Shown one piece after another: positions 2,531-19,949 of a DNA stretch of 64,000 nt. The notes below the pieces were generated by a model, which was not told where the DNA came from, did no database searches, and saw only the letters and a list, made by a program, of their open reading frames with translations. A program made the position numbers and the translations under genes. The DNA is from a virus: the IMG/VR virus record IMGVR_UViG_3300002092_000025. One strand, 5' to 3'. Position 1 is the first letter of the stretch, and every line of letters starts with the position of its first letter.

Positions 2531-4048
2531 ATGCCAAGACTCAGTTTATACAAGCCCGAAAAAGGCAACGACTATAAGTTCATAGATAAACAAATCTACG
2601 AGATGTTTCAGATTGGGGGTACTGATGTTTTTGTACATAAGTACCTCGGACCTGCCGATCCTGGTGATCCCAATCGAGCAACTAGCCCTTCTACTATTCA
2701 AGATGTATTATTTTTAGAAAATCGTGATAGAAAATATGATTCATCTATATATATCATGAGAGGAGTGTATAATGTACAAGATATTGACTTTAATCTAAGT
2801 CAATTTGGTTTATTTCTACAGAATGATACGATTTTTATGACTGTGCATATAAACAATACAGTTGATACATTGGGACGTAAAATCATGAGCGGTGATGTTT
2901 TAGAACTTCCACATCTTAAAGATGACTTTGCTCTTAACGATTATACTATAGCTCTAAAGAGATTTTATGTAGTAGAAGATATAAATCGTGCTGCTGAAGG
3001 TTTTAGTATAACATGGTATCCCCATCTGTATAGGTTAAAACTTAAACCTATAATAGATAGCCAAGAATTTAAAGATATCTTAGATCTTCCGCAAGACATG
3101 GAAACATATAGCGGAGTATGGACCGATGCTACTCAGTACTACGAAGGTCAAACTGTAAAATATAACGGAAAATTATATCAAGTTATAGCAGACGCATATA
3201 GCGTCGTTCCTCCTAATAGTGATTTTTACAAAGATATAACCGATGGCGGTATGTTACGAGATGTTATGAGCACATACCTAAAAGAAAAACAAGCGAACGA
3301 CGGTGTGTTGGCGGAAGCCGAAGCTGCTGCTCCAATGAGCGGGTATGATACTAGAAATTTCTATACACTACAAGTTGATGCAAACGGTAATGCTCAACTA
3401 GCAACTGTTGATGATCCAAATATTAATGCTAGCTCATCTACTTCGGCTTCTACTACTACTCCAACGCCAACTAAAGAAGGATATCAGGGATATTTAATTG
3501 GAGCAGGAATTCCTCCAAACGGTGCTCCATACGGATTTGGTATACAGTTTCCATTCTTACCAGCTGAGGGTGAATATTTCTTAAGAACTGATTATCTACC
3601 AAATAGACTTTTTCGATTTGATGGTAAAAGATGGGTTAAATTTGAAGATGCTGTTAGAATGATTAAAACTAATACTGATAATAGAGAGATTCAAAAGACT
3701 AATTTTGTTAATAACACAGCATACAGCGGTATTAATTCTCTCTACACAGACACGTTTATTATTAGTAATCCTATGGTATTCCGTCCGGCTGACCTAACTC
3801 AAGGATTAGATATAGATAACAAAAAAGTAATAACTACTATAAATTATAATAACAAATATGGTGTAGAAGTATTTGTTAATGATCAAGTTATGCCTGTTTC
3901 TCAAGTTTATAACGATAGTGGTAAACTAGCGTTTATAACATTATATAAATTACTAGTTAGTAGCAGAGTTACTTGGACTATATATGCTGAACAAGTACAA
4001 CAGAGAGTTGCTCTAAGTAAAGTTTTAAGACCGACTGCAGATCTTTAA
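2531..4048 (+). CDS. gp14: Neck/head-closure protein, gp14-like, with an inserted CBM-like module
   Basis: N-terminus MPRLSLYKPEKGNDYKFIDKQIYEMFQIGGTDV and the WYPHLYRLKLKP segment recall T4-like neck proteins. It lies directly upstream of gp15. Confidence 0.65.
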   Translation: MPRLSLYKPEKGNDYKFIDKQIYEMFQIGGTDVFVHKYLGPADPGDPNRATSPSTIQDVLFLENRDRKYDSSIYIMRGVYNVQDIDFNLSQFGLFLQNDTIFMTVHINNTVDTLGRKIMSGDVLELPHLKDDFALNDYTIALKRFYVVEDINRAAEGFSITWYPHLYRLKLKPIIDSQEFKDILDLPQDMETYSGVWTDATQYYEGQTVKYNGKLYQVIADAYSVVPPNSDFYKDITDGGMLRDVMSTYLKEKQANDGVLAEAEAAAPMSGYDTRNFYTLQVDANGNAQLATVDDPNINASSSTSASTTTPTPTKEGYQGYLIGAGIPPNGAPYGFGIQFPFLPAEGEYFLRTDYLPNRLFRFDGKRWVKFEDAVRMIKTNTDNREIQKTNFVNNTAYSGINSLYTDTFIISNPMVFRPADLTQGLDIDNKKVITTINYNNKYGVEVFVNDQVMPVSQVYNDSGKLAFITLYKLLVSSRVTWTIYAEQVQQRVALSKVLRPTADL

Positions 4049-12606: not shown

Positions 12607-14319
12607 TTAGGCCGGAGCTCCGGCTGCCGGGGTTGGAACACCACTAGGACCAGCAGCCGCCGTTTGAGCACCCGGAGGAGATATTGCTCCGTCTGCTGGC
12701 ATTTCTTCTTCAGGTGGTGCCATTGCATCTTCGATGCCGCCTGGGGTTATTCCAGCACCGCGCATTTCTGAACTTGCATCCTCGTCGATGCCTCCCATAT
12801 CTCTGTTTTCTTCTCTCCAGAGTCTTTCATTCTCTATGATTTCTTCTTGGCTCAATCCTAAGAAACGCTTCATAGTAAAACGCTTACTCATATACGGAAT
12901 TTCATTCATTGTCTGGAACGTCTGTACACGAGCAGTATCGAGTTCACTTAAACGATAAGCAGCAAAGTTCTGAGGTGGATTAAACTTTAAACTAAAGATC
13001 CCATTATCTATTATGATACCATTCTGGAATAGATAAAGTTTAAATTCTTTATCAATTTCATTTTCCATTAGGCTTTGTAAGCGTTCTAGATATTTGTTAA
13101 AACGTAATTCTTGGATATAAGCAGTTCCGACTTTACCATCATTAAATGTACTTGCGCTATCGTCTGCACCTGTTGGGAGATATGAACTAGGAATACGTAA
13201 CGCACGGAATAGTTTATTAGTAAAGAATCTTAAATCGTCAATTTCACCCAAGTTAGTACCGCCCGGAAGTGTTTCAACTTTAGATCCACGTCCTTCTGCT
13301 GTCTGCGGGAAGAAGTAATCTTCGTTGATACTCATTGGATTATAACTGTTATCGATAACACTTGCACCACCAGTAGCACTAGGAATTCTTCTTTGATGTA
13401 TTTCGTTCTTTACTCGTTCAACGAAAGCCATAGCCATATGACTAGGCATATTCCCAACATCAATATAGAATACACGTCGCTCTGGAGCACGTTGGACACG
13501 GTAAATGATGATAGCATCTTCTAACAGTTCCTTCTGCTTATAAACTTTAAAAACAGATTCAAGTAATGAGTTTCCAAAAGGATAATTGTTATCTAAACCT
13601 TCGCTTAGACTTATATGTACCATGTGTTTAGCTTCGATAGCCATTTCATTCTGTGCTATGCTAAAACGTGTACCACTCTGTTGTGGAAACGCACCTGTCA
13701 TACCTCGAGCACCGGCACCGCCGCTAACATAAGCAGATCCGCTAGGCTGTGTATTTTGATTTGAAGGATTAATCTGTGTCACAACTAAATTATGGAAGTT
13801 AGGATTAAGATCACGGATAATATATTGCTCTGGTTTCTTACCATCGCTTTCATTAACGATAATCTTAACTAACTTACCTGGATCTAAGTAGAACCACTTC
13901 TTAGTTTCTGGATCGCGGATAAAAAATGTATCTCCGTATTTGCAAGTATTACGGAATATCTTGAAAATTCTTGTTTCAAGTTGCTGTAAGTCTGACCACT
14001 TACGCAGGTAATCTCCAAGTAATTTAACTTCTACGCTTGTTGCTTTATCGCGGAAGAAAATCTGGAATGGTGTATTATTTTCTCTGCTCTTCTGTGTACT
14101 AAACTCTGCGATAATATCTAGAGCAGCATTAACTTCGGAGTCGGTATCCATAGTATCATACTGTAGATAACGTTCAATACGATTAGGACTTCCAACGTAA
14201 ACATCTGGAAGATATGAACTATAATTTGATTTAGATCCTGTGCCGATCGATGGCATTCCGCCCAGCGGGCTTAATTGTCCATTTGGATTTACAGGGGTAA
14301 AATACCTTTTCCAGCTCAT
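12607..14319 (-). CDS. gp20: Portal vertex protein
   Basis: LEDAIIIYRVQRAPERRVFYIDVGNMP, INEDYFFP...EGRGSKVETLPGGTNLGEIDD...LFRALRIPSS are gp20 motifs. Confidence 0.96.
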   Translation of the reverse strand: MSWKRYFTPVNPNGQLSPLGGMPSIGTGSKSNYSSYLPDVYVGSPNRIERYLQYDTMDTDSEVNAALDIIAEFSTQKSRENNTPFQIFFRDKATSVEVKLLGDYLRKWSDLQQLETRIFKIFRNTCKYGDTFFIRDPETKKWFYLDPGKLVKIIVNESDGKKPEQYIIRDLNPNFHNLVVTQINPSNQNTQPSGSAYVSGGAGARGMTGAFPQQSGTRFSIAQNEMAIEAKHMVHISLSEGLDNNYPFGNSLLESVFKVYKQKELLEDAIIIYRVQRAPERRVFYIDVGNMPSHMAMAFVERVKNEIHQRRIPSATGGASVIDNSYNPMSINEDYFFPQTAEGRGSKVETLPGGTNLGEIDDLRFFTNKLFRALRIPSSYLPTGADDSASTFNDGKVGTAYIQELRFNKYLERLQSLMENEIDKEFKLYLFQNGIIIDNGIFSLKFNPPQNFAAYRLSELDTARVQTFQTMNEIPYMSKRFTMKRFLGLSQEEIIENERLWREENRDMGGIDEDASSEMRGAGITPGGIEDAMAPPEEEMPADGAISPPGAQTAAAGPSGVPTPAAGAPA

Positions 14320-17300
14320 TACTTGCCACCCATTGCGCTACCTCGTTGACGTATCGCATCAACTTGGTCTTTATTAAAGTCTCTAACTTCTTTAGTCAAA
14401 TTAACCAATTCAGTTAGTAGTGTATTTAACTTATCTGCGTTGTCTGTCCTTGGGGTTGTGGACGATCCACTTCCAGCTGCTCCACTTCCTGAACTACCGC
14501 TTCCTGCTGATCCTTGTGTTCCGGCTATTGTTTCTTTTAATTTTGCAATATCAAGTGCTGACATCGAAGTACCTAATGCGCTAACACTCTTCGATAGTGT
14601 ATCGATCGATTTAGCAAAATCAGTTACTCCGCTAGATTGATTTTTAAGATCATCGCCTAATGTTGTTTTTAGAGTTTGCAATCCATTAGCTATATTGCTA
14701 ATGTTAGTTCCATTAACTTTATCTAATACAGAAAGACTATCAGCAAATTTCTTAATACCACCATCGCCTGATACTAATCCACTAATACCTTTTCCAAGAC
14801 CTTCTAAGAATCCGCTACCAGTAAACAGCGACATTGCTTTATGAAGGTCTATCATAGGCTGTGCTATATTCCTAATAGCGTCGGCATTAACTTCACCAAA
14901 TGCTGTTAGTGATTTTGCTATTGATGTTAAGCCACTTGCACCGCCGAGTGTTGCTAGAATACCACCACCCGCTAAACTAACTAACGGATCTGCTACAGCA
15001 GCTAGAGCCGGACCTAATGCTTTAAGTTTATCGCTATCGAGTTTTGTTAACTGTTCTAATACTACTGGTATCGATTTAAACCCGTTAACAAATGAATCAA
15101 TAACTTTCGATACACCTTCAAACATAAATCCAAGTCCACCTGCTGCTAGACCAAATGCTGCTACTACTGCTGCTACTGGAACTAATACAGTAGCTAGTCC
15201 TGCACCAAGAGATGTTAATGCTTTTCCTAGTAAATAGACCCCTGCGATAACAACACCGCCAACACCGAGTACGGTTCCGATATTATCAAGTGCCCATTTA
15301 AATCCATTCATTGCTGTTTCAACTAAGCTAAATGATTTTTCACCGTCGCTGGAGAAAAATCCAAAGAACTTCGTGACCAAAGGAAAGGTGTCTTCTATTG
15401 ATTTTTTAATACCATTGAGCATCATTTCAACCGGACTAGATGATTCCATTGCATCAAGTTGAGATTGAATATCTGCTAATTGACGATCTCCGGAATTTTC
15501 GTTTATAGTTCCAGATTTTAATCCTTGTTGTATTGATGTTTTTTTTGCTTGTAACTCGTCTCTTTTCTTTTTCTGCTCAGGCGGTTCAAATAAATTTCTA
15601 ATCAATCCCATAGCAATTGGTTTGAGAGAATCAAATAATCCAGAGAATGCATCGGTTATTGATCCAGTACTAATAGCATCTGTTAAACCAGTTAAGAAGT
15701 TATCAAGTCCTCCAATAATTTTTTCAAAGAATGGTCCAATTAAATCAGATTTTTTATTAAAAAATTCGGCAAATTTCTTTAATACATCTTGTATTTTTTC
15801 AAATACTTTGCTCTTAATCATCGCTAACATAATATCGCTTTTTACAGTTTGGAAGACCTGTCCAAAAGTACCCATTGCTTTGGTTATTTCTTCTCGCTTG
15901 TCTTGTTCTTTAACAGCGTCATCGATATTTGCATTTGCTATTTCGTTTAACGAATTAAGATATTCTTGCATCTTTGCTAATTCTGGATTAGCTGCGATCA
16001 TTTCAGAACTAAATCGTCCTAAGAAACTTTTCATATTCTTAGCTTGATCTTTATATCCTTGTATCTGTTCTCGAGTTGATAACTTACCATCTCCGAGAGC
16101 TTTATTAAACTTTAAGAATCCCGGAACAGCAGTCGCCATCATAGATCCAAACTTATCACCAGGTTTAATAATTCCCGCCATAGCATTTGTCAATGTATCC
16201 TGGAATGGTGCAAATTTTGATCCTGTTAAAATAACACCTGCTTGAAAATTCTTTAGAGCATCACCAGTTAATTTGCTAGCCATAAAGGATAATCGACCTT
16301 CTTTTAGCTGTTTTGCTAGCATTTCTTCAGTTTGTTTTCTAGACAGCCCAGTTGCTTTTGATAGCTTATCCATCTCTAGGATATATTCTTCAGTACCTGC
16401 AATGAGTTCAGCTTCTGATTTTCCTTGTAGACGTCCCATACGCATCTGTATATCTAGATAACTAGACAAGTAATCATTAAGATCACCTGATGTCATCCCC
16501 ATCATCTGCATATTTTTACCAAATTCACTAGTAGTAACTCCTCGACTCATCTTCGCAAATGATTGAGCACCTTGGGTTACTGTTCCGCCTAGCTGTGCTA
16601 ACAATCCACTATTTTGTTTTACCATAGCAGTAAAATCTTCTAATGGCATTGCAGCTTCGGCAGCAGTTTTTCTAAGCAGTGTTATGTCGTTATTAAATGA
16701 AGCACCAACTGAACTTGTTTCTCTTAGTCCTTCCATGCCGTCTGTAAAGAAGCTTAACAATCCTTTACCAGCAGCAACTATACCGGTCATAATCAATCCA
16801 AATCCTGCGCCAACTATACTACCAGCTGCACTGGTTATTGAACCTCCAAAACTCTTAACTTCTTTTCCAGTTGATCCCAAGATACTTCCAAATACACTGC
16901 TGCGATCAGTAGTACCCGATAATGAGCTTTCTAAATTTTTAGCTTCTTTTCCAGTAGTTCCTAATAGATCACCAAATACACTGCTACGTTTAGTAGTACC
17001 CGATAATGAGCTTTCTAGAGCTTTAGCTTCTTTTCCAGTAGTTCCTAATAGATCACCAAATACACTGCTACGTTTAGTAGTACCCGATAATGAGCTTTCT
17101 AAATTTTTAGCTTCTTTTCCAGTAGTTCCTAATAGATCACCAAATACACTGCTGCGATCAGTAGTACCCGATAATGAGCTTTCTAAATTTTTAGCTTCTT
17201 TTCCAGTAGTTCCTAATAGATCACCAAATACACCGCTACGTTTAGTAGTATTTGATAATGCACCATCTAGAGCTTTAGCTTCTTTTCCAGTAGTTCCCAA

Positions 17301-17705
17301 TAGATCACCAAATACACTGCTACGACTAGTAGTTCCAGCTAGTGAGCTTTCTAGATTCTTAACTCCCTTGCTAGTCGAACCTAAAAGATCACCAAATACA
17401 CCGCTACGTTTAGTAGTATTTGATAATGCACTATCTAGAGCTTTAGCTTCTTTTGAAGTTTGACCTAGCATATCGCTGAATATTTTACTGCGATCAGTTG
17501 TTTGATTTAATGCTTTAACATTTCCATCTAGTGCTTTATTAAAGAGTTCGTTAACTTTGCTACTGGCAGATTTTCCACCAGCACCCCCGCCGCCCATCTT
17601 TTCTATTGCAGCAGCAACCCGTAGTAATGTTACTTCAGAAGCAGCGTTTTCTAATTGCGCTCCGTCAAACTGTCCACCACCACGTACACTAACTTTTTCA
17701 GCCAT
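14319..17705 (-). CDS. Probable tail tape measure protein
   Basis: 1128 aa, largely helical, with Ala/Gly-rich hydrophobic segments and internal tandem repeats. It is adjacent to the gp26/gp51-like chaperone genes. Confidence 0.7.
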   Translation of the reverse strand: MAEKVSVRGGGQFDGAQLENAASEVTLLRVAAAIEKMGGGGAGGKSASSKVNELFNKALDGNVKALNQTTDRSKIFSDMLGQTSKEAKALDSALSNTTKRSGVFGDLLGSTSKGVKNLESSLAGTTSRSSVFGDLLGTTGKEAKALDGALSNTTKRSGVFGDLLGTTGKEAKNLESSLSGTTDRSSVFGDLLGTTGKEAKNLESSLSGTTKRSSVFGDLLGTTGKEAKALESSLSGTTKRSSVFGDLLGTTGKEAKNLESSLSGTTDRSSVFGSILGSTGKEVKSFGGSITSAAGSIVGAGFGLIMTGIVAAGKGLLSFFTDGMEGLRETSSVGASFNNDITLLRKTAAEAAMPLEDFTAMVKQNSGLLAQLGGTVTQGAQSFAKMSRGVTTSEFGKNMQMMGMTSGDLNDYLSSYLDIQMRMGRLQGKSEAELIAGTEEYILEMDKLSKATGLSRKQTEEMLAKQLKEGRLSFMASKLTGDALKNFQAGVILTGSKFAPFQDTLTNAMAGIIKPGDKFGSMMATAVPGFLKFNKALGDGKLSTREQIQGYKDQAKNMKSFLGRFSSEMIAANPELAKMQEYLNSLNEIANANIDDAVKEQDKREEITKAMGTFGQVFQTVKSDIMLAMIKSKVFEKIQDVLKKFAEFFNKKSDLIGPFFEKIIGGLDNFLTGLTDAISTGSITDAFSGLFDSLKPIAMGLIRNLFEPPEQKKKRDELQAKKTSIQQGLKSGTINENSGDRQLADIQSQLDAMESSSPVEMMLNGIKKSIEDTFPLVTKFFGFFSSDGEKSFSLVETAMNGFKWALDNIGTVLGVGGVVIAGVYLLGKALTSLGAGLATVLVPVAAVVAAFGLAAGGLGFMFEGVSKVIDSFVNGFKSIPVVLEQLTKLDSDKLKALGPALAAVADPLVSLAGGGILATLGGASGLTSIAKSLTAFGEVNADAIRNIAQPMIDLHKAMSLFTGSGFLEGLGKGISGLVSGDGGIKKFADSLSVLDKVNGTNISNIANGLQTLKTTLGDDLKNQSSGVTDFAKSIDTLSKSVSALGTSMSALDIAKLKETIAGTQGSAGSGSSGSGAAGSGSSTTPRTDNADKLNTLLTELVNLTKEVRDFNKDQVDAIRQRGSAMGGK
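16860..17480 (-). repeat. 84-nt (28-aa) tandem repeat, about 7 copies
   Basis: ccagtagttcc recurs at 16951 and 17035 (84 nt apart) and onward. Unit GTTGKEAKNLESSLSGTTDRSSVFGDLL. Confidence 0.95.
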
Positions 17706-17729: not shown

Positions 17730-17763
17730 TATAAATATCGTATCATATATATCGTTTATTTAT
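17730..17763. promoter_or_regulatory. Divergent late promoters (plus TATAAATA 17730-17737; minus ATAAATA 17763-17757)
   Basis: A full T4 late consensus precedes the gp26-like gene and an opposite-strand motif precedes the tape measure gene. Confidence 0.75.
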
Positions 17764-17776
17764 TGGAGCAAAGATC

Positions 17777-18637
17777 ATGGTAGTTCAAGACAATTCAAAT
17801 CCGTTAAGGAAATATTTTAGACAACCTAAAATCTATCTTAAACTTCCAAGCAAAGGCAAATATTACACGCCTGGCGCTATTGATATGCCTGAAAACGGTG
17901 AAATTCCAGTATTTGCTATGACAGCAAAAGATGAATTGATTATTAAAACTCCAGATGCTTTATTAAATGGTGAAGCAACAGTTGAAGTTATTAAGAGCTG
18001 TATTCCTAATATCAAAGATCCTTGGAAGATGCCTAGCATCGATAGTGATGCTATATTAATAGCAATACGACTAGCAACTTATGGTGAAAAACTAGAGATA
18101 ACAACCAAAGTTCCCGAAGTTGGTGAAGAAAAAACATTTGAAATTGATCTTCGTATGTTATTAGATCAATTAATAGTTTTTGAATTTGATCCATTTATAA
18201 CAATTGACGACGATATGACGGTTGAATTACGTCCAACAAACTATAAAGAATTCACTGACAATGCTCTTAAGACATTCGAAGAGCAGCGTATTTTTAGATT
18301 AGTAAATGATACAAACATTCCAGATGAACAGAAGCTCTCTGCTTTTTCTGCCAGCTTCCGTAAGTTAACTGAGTTAACTATCGATCTAGTTGTTAATAGT
18401 ATAGTTTGTATCGATACCACTGACGGAAAAGTAACTGATAAGAAACATATTAAAGATTTCTTTGAAAATGCTGACCGTAGTACTTTTGAAAAAATATTAA
18501 AACATCTAGAAAAGATGAGAGACGAAAGTAAGATCAAACCGTTAACAGTGCGAGCAACACCAGAAGAGATTGCTGCCGGTGCTCCAGAAGAATACGAAAT
18601 TCCTATCACGTTTGACCAATCAAATTTTTTCGGATAA
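17777..18637 (+). CDS. gp26: Baseplate hub assembly/tail chaperone, gp26-like
   Basis: RQPKIYLKLPS.G..Y, MTAKDELIIKTPDALLNG, IDSDAILIAIRLATYGE are gp26-like motifs. Confidence 0.75.
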   Translation: MVVQDNSNPLRKYFRQPKIYLKLPSKGKYYTPGAIDMPENGEIPVFAMTAKDELIIKTPDALLNGEATVEVIKSCIPNIKDPWKMPSIDSDAILIAIRLATYGEKLEITTKVPEVGEEKTFEIDLRMLLDQLIVFEFDPFITIDDDMTVELRPTNYKEFTDNALKTFEEQRIFRLVNDTNIPDEQKLSAFSASFRKLTELTIDLVVNSIVCIDTTDGKVTDKKHIKDFFENADRSTFEKILKHLEKMRDESKIKPLTVRATPEEIAAGAPEEYEIPITFDQSNFFG

Positions 18638-18667
18638 GACTCCTTGGGATGGATCTTCCTGAGATCC
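18622..18667 (+). promoter_or_regulatory. Candidate -1 ribosomal frameshift site with downstream stem-loop
   Basis: In-frame heptamers A AAT TTT (18622-18628) and T TTT TTC (18625-18631). The -1 frame is open into 18649..18861. Stem GGATCT-TCCTG-AGATCC at 18651-18667. Confidence 0.65.
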
Positions 18668-18861
18668 TCAAGTATGTTGATGCACTCGACAAGGAGTCAA
18701 AAGCCATGAAAGAAGAACTTTTTAAATTGTGTTGGTATATGCGCGGCGGTATATCTATCGACGATGCGTTTACTATGAGTTTTGAAGATCGCCAGATAGT
18801 TAGTGCTATAGTTAAAGATAACTTAGAGACTGCTAAGAAAACAGGAATGCCGTTCTTTTAA
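18649..18861 (+). CDS. gp51: gp51-like baseplate assembly catalyst; probably also the C-terminal part of a frameshift fusion
   Basis: LCWYMRGGISIDDAFTMSFEDRQI resembles the gp51-like family. It lies in the -1 frame relative to gp26 and has no clear Shine-Dalgarno. Confidence 0.6.
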   Translation: MDLPEILKYVDALDKESKAMKEELFKLCWYMRGGISIDDAFTMSFEDRQIVSAIVKDNLETAKKTGMPFF

Positions 18862-19949
18862 AATTTCTTTAGTACTACGTGCGACGATGATGATTCGGAA
18901 AGTACGACTCTGATTCTCAAATCTCTTAAAGTAACACCACGAGCTTCTAGCATCTTTGTTGCAAAGAAATATGCTTTACGTGATATAGGTTTACCACTGT
19001 ATGCTGCTTCCGCGATAGCTTTTAACATCCTAGCTTCACTAAATTTAGTATCAGGCATTTTAATCGTAGTTGTCCGTGTAACTGGTTTATTCGGAAGAGC
19101 TGCTTTATTTTTTGCATCATTCTTAGCTTTCCAGTCAGGAACTGTTTTACCTGCAGGTGCAGCAGCTGGTTGCGCTTGTGTTGGAGCAGTAGTAGCTGGA
19201 TCTTGTTTTGGAGCAGCAGTTTTAAATCCACTCGCAGCAGCAGCTGGTTTTTGTATATCTGCTACACTTTTTCTAAATCCACCCTGGGATGATGAATTCG
19301 GAGCTTGCTTTGCGGGTTGTTCAGGAGCACCAGGTTGTGGTGCTGGATTATCTTGTGTTGCACCCTGGGCAGGTGTTGGAGCCGGTTGAGGGGCTTGCCC
19401 GGGTGCTTGTCCAGGTTGTTGTTGAGCAGCTACACCCGCAGGTGATCCTGTTGGAGCAGCAGCAGGTTTTTGAGAAACAGCAACACCAGGCTGTGCAGTT
19501 GGAACAGTTCCTGGTCCGGGAGCAGCTCCAGGTTGTTGGCTTGCGCCAGATGCATCCGGTTGTTCACTATCACCATTAGCCGGATCTCCAGCAGCAAGAT
19601 TCTGCGATACTCCCATAAGAAATTTTTCTACTTCACCTGTACTCATTGCTTGTGGATTTTTAGGTGGAACTTTAGCAGATACTTGCTTAACTACATCGCC
19701 CATAATCTTTTGTGTTTGTAGGAATTTAGCGAGAGAATCAACTGATGGTGCTTGACCAGAGCTACCTACATATTTGTAATAGTCTTTGTATAACTTATTT
19801 GCAACAGTACCAGCATCTAACTTGCCCTGTGCTTGAGCTCCCCATTTACCAGGAAGAAACTTCGCTCCTAGTTTATTAAGTCCTCTAGATACCATTCCCT
19901 GTGGTGCTTCGTCAACTTCATGTTTGTCAAGGAACTCATATATTTTCAT
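18858..19949 (-). CDS. Low-complexity Pro/Ala/Gln-rich protein, possible internal head protein
   Basis: 363-aa ORF with a late motif ATAAATA at 19979-19973. N-terminus MKIYEFLDKHEVDEA. Confidence 0.7.
   Translation of the reverse strand: MKIYEFLDKHEVDEAPQGMVSRGLNKLGAKFLPGKWGAQAQGKLDAGTVANKLYKDYYKYVGSSGQAPSVDSLAKFLQTQKIMGDVVKQVSAKVPPKNPQAMSTGEVEKFLMGVSQNLAAGDPANGDSEQPDASGASQQPGAAPGPGTVPTAQPGVAVSQKPAAAPTGSPAGVAAQQQPGQAPGQAPQPAPTPAQGATQDNPAPQPGAPEQPAKQAPNSSSQGGFRKSVADIQKPAAAASGFKTAAPKQDPATTAPTQAQPAAAPAGKTVPDWKAKNDAKNKAALPNKPVTRTTTIKMPDTKFSEARMLKAIAEAAYSGKPISRKAYFFATKMLEARGVTLRDLRIRVVLSESSSSHVVLKKF

Follow-up and report, generated by a model that had tools for sequence, protein, structure and literature searches.

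The question raised by this locus is whether one phage gene supplies two different baseplate hub assembly chaperones. The window analysed here, a stretch of 64,000 nucleotides (nt) from the IMG/VR virus record IMGVR_UViG_3300002092_000025, is part of an uncultured freshwater T4-like giant phage. Its plus strand carries a gene of the baseplate hub assembly chaperone family that resembles T4 gene 26 (17777–18637, 286 amino acids (aa)), followed by a 70-aa open reading frame (ORF) at 18649–18861. The comparison favours, with a probability of about 85%, a programmed -1 ribosomal frameshift by which this one gene would produce a short gp26-type and a long gp51-type chaperone. The sequence anatomy of the site and its conservation are directly observed, as are the coding signature that the -1 frame shows and the homology to gp26 and gp51; from them we infer the ribosomal nature of the slip.

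The gp26-like gene, which defines the zero frame, ends with TCA AAT TTT TTC GGA TAA. The proposed shift site is the slippery heptamer T_TTT_TTC (18625–18631), which is in phase with the ORF starting at 17777, and the zero-frame stop codon TAA (18635–18637) lies one sense codon past it. A second in-phase heptamer, A_AAT_TTT (18622–18628), overlaps the first, and a slip there would lead to the same protein. An earlier sequence-only reading of the locus had proposed both heptamers, and both are present; in relatives, T_TTT_TTC or T_TTT_TTT is kept and A_AAT_TTT, which needs an AAT codon, is not. The 70-aa ORF is in the -1 frame (18649 − 17777 = 872 = 3n + 2), and this frame is open from 18616 to 18861. 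The 361-aa fusion proposed in that reading therefore holds as a prediction, with 285 residues of the body joined to 76 residues of the extension at ...S-N-F-F-R-I-R-L-L-G-M-D.... The extension consists of 76 codons and a stop (18631–18861), contains the whole 70-aa ORF and would form the C-terminal tail of the long form. A contig from an independent lake-water study spans 18450–18900 with one substitution and no indel, so the slip site is not an assembly artefact.

In the favoured mechanism, most ribosomes would end at the TAA at 18635 and give the 286-aa short form. A fraction of them would slip back by one base within U_UUU_UUC (18625–18631), with two tRNA-Phe on UUU UUC, and both tRNAs would re-pair perfectly on UUU UUU. 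The slipped ribosomes would then read CGG AUA AGA and onward to 18858, giving a 361-aa long form with the same N-terminal body and a 76-aa tail of three predicted helices. Slipping is probably made more frequent by an RNA helix that starts 6 nt downstream and would make the ribosome pause. The short form would be the counterpart of T4 gp26 and the long form that of T4 gp51, the two being paralogous hub assembly chaperones. Because the two forms match gp26 and gp51, respectively, a single gene would supply both chaperones at a ratio set by the slip.

Relatives were sampled at four distances, namely isolate jumbo phages, jumbo-type loci from IMG/VR, cyanophage-type loci, and Aeh1-type loci together with the separate clade L177-179. 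The isolate set included the window and Atu_ph07, Phosso, Xoo-sp13, XacN1, CBB, PA5oct, 121Q, RaK2, SCTP-2, XaC1, PHA46 and Hallingskeid, and the proteins of these isolates show 28–35% identity to the window protein. All 13 sequences have T_TTT_TTC or T_TTT_TTT in phase near the gene end and within an open -1 stretch. The -1 frame goes on for 58–76 codons in these sequences, and the zero-frame stop is 1 to 11 codons past the heptamer. When IMG/VR was scanned with the window protein and the loci found were pooled with those of the isolates, the heptamer was present in 72 of 72 loci with an alignable C-terminus, and the -1 extension was almost always exactly 76 codons long. The cyanophage-type contigs, which were found via S-WAM1 gp26, read TTT TTC GNN TAG in 54 of 54 unique sequences, followed by a -1 extension of 62–68 codons. 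The heptamer was also present in all four Aeh1-type Straboviridae loci and in all three loci of clade L177-179, there as T_TTT_TTT. The sequence-only reading had named the lack of a conserved heptamer or of an open -1 linker in relatives as the outcome that would speak against a frameshift, and the opposite was found. Every relative with an alignable gene end, including jumbo phages at 28–74% identity, the cyanophage-type and the Aeh1-type, carries T_TTT_TTY in phase with an open and conserved -1 extension. Loss of the heptamer was seen solely in genomes that have either a separate gene 51 or the tail as a small ORF of its own.

The conservation extends to synonymous positions. Among 57 unique jumbo-type sequences, none of the six T varies, not even at two synonymous positions, and 55 have C as the seventh base; the other third codon positions of these sequences show 0.1–0.6 bits. 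The X base of the heptamer is always T, and it is supplied by AAT in 28 of the 57 and by GAT, AGT, CAT, GCT, CGT or ACT in the rest, so that the encoded residue may be N, D, S, H, A, R or T. TTC accounts for 26% of the Phe codons in these genes (TTT for 74%), yet the A-site codon is TTC in 55 of 57. The zero-frame stop is one codon past the heptamer in 40 of 57 relatives and 2–11 codons past it in the others. A run of seven T rather than six exists in Xoo-sp13, XacN1 and L177-179. By these counts, the conservation of the heptamer far exceeds chance. Two independent metagenome studies also contain several contigs from other phages whose match to the window (90% or more) is confined to an island of about 50 nt (18596–18645); on both flanks they differ from the window. 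On this comparison, the slip-site cassette is conserved at the nucleotide level well beyond the flanking coding sequence.

Right past the heptamer the conservation changes phase: the T at +16 and at +19 are invariant, and each occupies the second position of a -1 codon. Already with the first -1 codon a conserved peptide begins, R-x-R-L-L-x-x-x-x-E-E-I, which precedes any start; the six residues ahead of the Met encoded by the window ATG (18649–18651) are likewise conserved in the -1 frame. The conserved motifs of the whole tail are R-x-R-L-L ... WYMRGG ... ER ... PFF. The ATG of the 70-aa ORF is not a conserved start, and in relatives its place is taken by codons for W, L, T or S. The first -1-frame ATG of the relatives is found at codon 2, 3, 7, 9, 13, 19, 20, 26, 31, 33, 37 or 49, most often at codon 19; it is at codon 19 or later in about 70% of the jumbo-type sequences and absent in one. 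These patterns indicate that the -1 frame is protein-coding from the slip site onward, with no conserved start codon. The 76-aa tail, modelled with an alignment of 31 metagenomic relatives, is predicted to form three helices (predicted local distance difference test score (pLDDT) 90.8). A search of the PDB with this model gave no convincing fold match, and a search of BFVD returned just a truncated 40-aa ORF of Atu_ph07 (probability 0.91) and a 57-aa protein of pf16 (probability 0.60). Seven RaK2-type tails match the unnamed family phrog_18291.

The body and the tail were then compared with the T4 proteins. The product of 17777–18637 matches PF12322 (T4_baseplate) over residues 23–251 (E = 7e-16, 59 bits versus a cut-off of 24.5) and phrog_150 'baseplate hub' (E = 2e-21), so the label 'gp26-like' given from the sequence was right. 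T4 gene 26 (208 aa) ends with GAG TTC TTT GAG TTA CTA TAA (EFFELL), with gene 25 directly next to it. It keeps the Phe-Phe and has neither heptamer nor extension; in T4 and a 58%-identical relative the Phe-Phe is encoded as TTC TTT or G TTT TTT, the relative likewise having gene 25 directly next to its gp26 gene, no heptamer and no extension. T4 gene 51 (249 aa) is transcribed divergently from gene 26. Its product matches PF12322 over residues 1–201 (E = 4e-52) and is a paralogue of gp26 (BLASTP E = 2e-6) with an added C-terminal tail. On the phrog_150 profile, T4 gp51 reaches position 280 and gp26 ends at 235. The -1 extensions of Aeh1 and S-WAM1 match positions 236–280 of the same profile and also phrog_634 'baseplate hub assembly catalyst' (E = 1e-13 and 2e-30, respectively), and these matches explain why the small ORF of cyanophages is annotated 'gp51'. 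Consistently, in a MAFFT alignment gp51 is colinear with the simulated fusion products and gp26 stops at the Phe-Phe.

For the window type, 46 fused products were aligned by hhalign with T4 gp51 and fused T4-like products (probability 99%, E = 8e-18). Residues 16–350 were paired with 2–248, through the junction (FFR-x-r-L-l versus FFR-i-x-l, with VFKLL in T4) and up to a shared S-x-x-E-x-x-x-M-x-P-x-E-R motif, where the pairing ends. The tail-only profile against the tail profile gave an E of 4.8e-4 and a probability of 32%, which is modest alone. The 70-aa ORF had been called gp51-like in the sequence-only reading; it matches the C-terminal tail of gp51 rather than the whole protein, and the fused 361-aa product is what matches gp51. 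The window short form is thus in the same family as its T4 counterpart, PF12322, and the fused product aligns with gp51 end to end, although the window-type tail is about 17–25 residues longer than that of T4 gp51 and carries the WYMRGG motif.

The arrangement of the genes differs between the two groups. T4 has two divergently transcribed genes and no heptamer, whereas the window and its cyanophage-type, Aeh1-type and jumbo relatives have one gene with a putative frameshift site that would supply both forms. Counts of PF12322 paralogues were taken from the relatives' genomes. Two such genes exist in T4 and in the 58%-identical heptamer-less relative, and one exists in each of twelve heptamer-bearing genomes or long contigs (Aeh1 and a relative, S-WAM1, a second cyanophage, RaK2, PA5oct, Atu_ph07, CBB, 121Q, Xoo-sp13 and two incomplete window-type contigs). 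By this comparison, heptamer and extension have both been lost from the T4-type genomes, in which gene 51 stands on its own. Both gp26 and gp51 are hub assembly chaperones, and gp51 is essential, has an unknown function and is absent from the particle (Leiman et al. 2010, PMC3004832). The two are tabulated as separate genes, as the sequence-only reading had stated for T4, and Aeh1 has no gp51 entry (PMC5349666). The T4 record also lists 26', an in-frame product of 95 aa that starts inside gene 26 and corresponds to the C-terminal part of gp26 (2803–3090 of locus L014), and T4 thus makes three PF12322-derived products, 26, 26' and 51; no counterpart of 26' was seen in the window, where it was not specifically sought.

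The 286-aa body was modelled with AlphaFold2 (pLDDT 86.6, predicted template-modelling score 0.80). No convincing fold match was found for this model by Foldseek against the PDB, in AlphaFold DB Swiss-Prot or in a wide VIA search. The best PDB match had an E of 0.3, a weak match that does not show that the fold differs from those of solved tail assembly chaperones, and the VIA search returned just generic helical-hairpin rows with Z below 8. Most relatives carry a C-x2-C ... C-x(1-2)-C/H pattern, with the first pair in the middle of the protein and the second just ahead of the Phe-Phe. The Cys of both pairs are lost in the window protein (VPEVGEE and RATPEEIAAGAPEEYE). T4 gp51 gives weak zinc-ribbon matches.

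A predicted RNA structure at 18638–18698 on the plus strand lies downstream of the slip site. Its outer 9-bp helix (18638–18646 paired with 18690–18698) begins 6 nt past the heptamer and encloses an inner hairpin (18651–18657 paired with 18661–18667); a small hairpin (18672–18675 paired with 18680–18683) is also part of the structure. The minimum free energy over 18632–18702 is −24.8 kcal/mol, with a z of −2.5. The stem-loop described in the sequence-only reading, a GGAUCUU/GAGAUCC hairpin, is present, but the local 44-nt fold that holds it (18632–18675) is no better than shuffles (z = +0.35), and the CTTG/CAAG extension of its stem exists in the window and is specific to it. The outer 9-bp helix is therefore a better candidate for the stimulator than the local hairpin, as far as the predicted folds can tell. 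In relatives, the 60 nt downstream of the site had a median z of −1.67 for the jumbo type versus −0.27 in control windows of the same genes (p = 2e-6) and of −2.9 versus −0.2 for the cyanophage type (p = 4e-14), p-values that overstate independence because the compared sequences are phylogenetically related. Uninterrupted stems of at least 7 bp starting 4–9 nt past the site were found in 66% of the jumbo-type sequences versus 14% of shuffles and 26% elsewhere in the gene. Four of six inspected cyanophage-type loci have the layout of an outer helix with an inner hairpin, with a 10–11-bp outer helix at +5. The predicted structure may thus have a stimulatory role. A Shine-Dalgarno-like GAAGGA or CGAGGA, a conceivable upstream stimulator, was also seen by eye 8–9 nt ahead of the site in the cyanophage-type and Aeh1-type sequences; the window group lacks it, and its position is that of a conserved R/E-G-L motif.

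Several points weigh against the frameshift, in addition to the shared ancestry of the compared sequences. The evidence for the slip is entirely comparative. A consensus RNA fold over 34 relatives contained no pairs; no common fold emerges because the pairing partners shift between subgroups, with AGGATCT/AGATCCT in one and GGCTTCT/AGAAGCT in another. The RNA structure of the window itself exceeds shuffles by just a moderate margin. Taken alone, the window-type tail matches nothing in Pfam (E 0.01) and nothing in PHROG, phrog_634 included; its link to the gp51 tail comes from the profile-profile alignment and from colinearity. In Pseudomonas phage Cygsa01 (2072–2982 of locus L017), the heptamer has decayed to AGC ATT TTC ACC TAA. 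The tail is encoded there by a 57-aa ORF with a start of its own, an ATG that overlaps the stop (TAATG), and it still matches phrog_634 (E = 9e-12). Cygsa01 has a single PF12322 gene, next to a gp5-like gene, and the tail can apparently work unfused there.

One alternative is an arrangement of two ordinary genes. Initiation or termination-reinitiation at ATG 18649 would then be the sole source of the tail, as a small protein of its own, and the heptamer would be kept for some other reason. The window ATG is 11 nt past the stop, small separate ORFs are annotated in several relatives, the Cygsa01 ORF has its own ATG and no heptamer, and gp26 and gp51 are tabulated separately (PMC5349666). Against this, the start is unconserved (the first -1 ATG varies from codon 2 to 49, is at codon 19 or later in about 70% of the jumbo type and is missing in one sequence), the six residues preceding the Met are conserved in the -1 frame, the synonymous positions of the heptamer are invariant, and T4 gp51 has body and tail in a single frame. 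The sequence-only reading had also found no clear Shine-Dalgarno for the 70-aa ORF, and indeed no GGAG/AGGA-type sequence exists in the 17 nt upstream of ATG 18649. Two ordinary genes are therefore a very unlikely explanation of the locus as a whole. Separate initiation of the 70-aa peptide at ATG 18649 may nevertheless coexist with the slip in the window as an additional route, and it is evidently the solution of Cygsa01. The heptamer might alternatively be a by-product of a conserved Phe-Phe in AT-rich genomes, with the downstream frame open by chance; the Phe-Phe is conserved even in T4 gp26, and these genes mostly encode Phe by TTT and have T more often than any other base at third positions. 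However, T4-type genomes keep the Phe-Phe with neither heptamer nor extension, X is always T though the amino acid varies, the minor codon TTC is nearly fixed, and more than 100 unique sequences share an open, conserved -1 frame of 58–77 codons, whose product folds confidently. The conservation and codon-usage data effectively refute this explanation.

The U6 run could also be read by transcriptional slippage, in which RNA polymerase adds one U in the T6 run and the same 361-aa protein arises by ordinary translation. The site is a homopolymer of six T, or of seven in the three cases given above, and one extra U gives exactly the same product, so sequence conservation alone cannot separate the two mechanisms. 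Slippage of bacterial and phage RNA polymerases is efficient at runs of about 8–9 or more, and selection would then favour longer runs, whereas 55 of 57 sequences here keep precisely six T and then a C. The 3' structure is enriched at a spacing of 4–9 nt, as expected for ribosomal pausing, and U-rich heptamers in tail chaperone genes are an established ribosomal precedent. A look-up of sequencing runs listed no RNA data set for 18200–18900. Transcriptional slippage is accordingly rated very unlikely on the sequence comparison, and a programmed -1 ribosomal frameshift is preferred.

The best-known case of such a slip is the conserved -1 frameshift of the tail assembly chaperone (TAC) genes of long-tailed phages, including lambda gpG/gpGT (Levin 1993; Xu, Hendrix & Duda 2004, 2013, 2014, as summarised in PMC5009743). 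Like lambda G/GT, the window gene is predicted from its sequence to undergo a -1 slip at a heptamer close to its 3' end and so to give a short and a C-extended form that share the N-terminal body; the role in tail assembly is alike, and the gene adjoins a tape-measure-like gene. Unlike in lambda, where the chaperone gene lies between the tube and tape-measure genes on the same strand, the window gene is divergent from its tape-measure-like neighbour. Its body is much larger (286 aa), and it shows no sequence match to the TAC families, with PF12322 as the only hit of the body in a Pfam scan at E 0.01. The proposal that the two T4-like chaperones are functional equivalents of G and GT thus stands for the expression logic and the chaperone role, and it falls short for the sequence link and the gene order. 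It is a reasonable functional analogy, with homology unsupported. In the contractile-tailed myovirus P2, Christie and co-workers (2002) reportedly described a -1 slip at the U-rich heptamer T_TTT_TTG that likewise makes a short (gpE) and an extended (gpE+E') tail chaperone. The P2 slip was shown experimentally and concerns a different protein family and genome position, whereas the window case is predicted from sequence alone. A full-text search, with subscription-only papers outside its reach, found no report of a gp26 frameshift, and the words baseplate, T4-like and cyanophage are absent from the consulted part of the 2016 recoding review (PMC5009743). The comparison supports a tail-chaperone frameshift in an unrelated protein family and in a phage group for which none was found reported.

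The surroundings of the gene fit a T4-like giant phage. The window encodes portal, prohead protease, major capsid, gp55-like sigma factor, gp46/47-like, gp5-like, gp25-like and gp6-like proteins, and the metagenomes with matching DNA are from freshwater and lakes. The divergent neighbour of the gp26-like gene is a tape-measure-like virion protein of 1128 aa on the minus strand (14319–17705), with 28-aa repeats and hydrophobic segments. It matches the virion structural protein family phrog_14121 (E = 3e-8), the record of its RaK2 counterpart says that it is similar to tail tape measure protein, and it is probably the tape measure. The portal, protease and capsid genes come after this ORF, and none of the scanned window ORFs was recognised as a tube gene. 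In T4-like relatives, the gene adjoining the gp26-like gene is gp5-like or unknown. A T4-type late-promoter-like TATAAATA (17730–17737, plus strand, read directly) and a GGAG (17765–17768, 8 nt ahead of the gp26-like ATG) both sit in the 71-nt gap common to the gp26-like and the tape-measure-like genes. The promoter-like element is presumably used, and a gp55-like late sigma factor is encoded in the window at 24535–25365. Downstream, a convergent 363-aa ORF on the minus strand (18858–19949) overlaps the stop of the -1 extension with its end; its middle is very rich in P, A, Q and G, and it has no Pfam or PHROG match.

In the databases the locus appears under other descriptions. The tail ORF is not annotated in RaK2 and PA5oct, is truncated to 40 aa in Atu_ph07, and is a separate 'hypothetical protein' in CBB, 121Q, XacN1, SCTP-2 and others; for the CBB homologue of the gp26-like protein the record gives 'structural protein'. 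No joined coding sequence exists in the 17 GenBank records examined, and none of them annotates a frameshift; the gene is split, or the tail ORF is truncated or omitted.

A broader reading can be put forward only tentatively, at somewhat less than even odds. Except in the T4-proper lineage, phages throughout the T4 superfamily (marine cyanomyoviruses, Aeh1-type phages, and RaK2/PA5oct/Atu_ph07-type and freshwater jumbo phages) would make gp26 and gp51 from one gene by an unannotated -1 frameshift. T4 genes 26 and 51 would then be a duplicated, hard-wired version of this switch and the long-missing counterpart of G/GT. The slip efficiency would set the ratio of short to long form, and the three-helix tail may recruit the first tube or hub subunits onto a tape measure coated with the chaperone.

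On the frameshift reading, gp51 would be the long form of gp26, and 26/51 would be a short and long chaperone pair. If this is true, a recoding event would be added to the marine cyanomyoviruses, which are among the most abundant virus groups on Earth, and to many jumbo phages that are therapeutic candidates. The frameshift is directly testable in cultured phages. The finding suggests that T4-like phages use the same trick as lambda with an unrelated protein, which would mean that both have come under a convergent pressure to make two forms of a chaperone in a fixed ratio.

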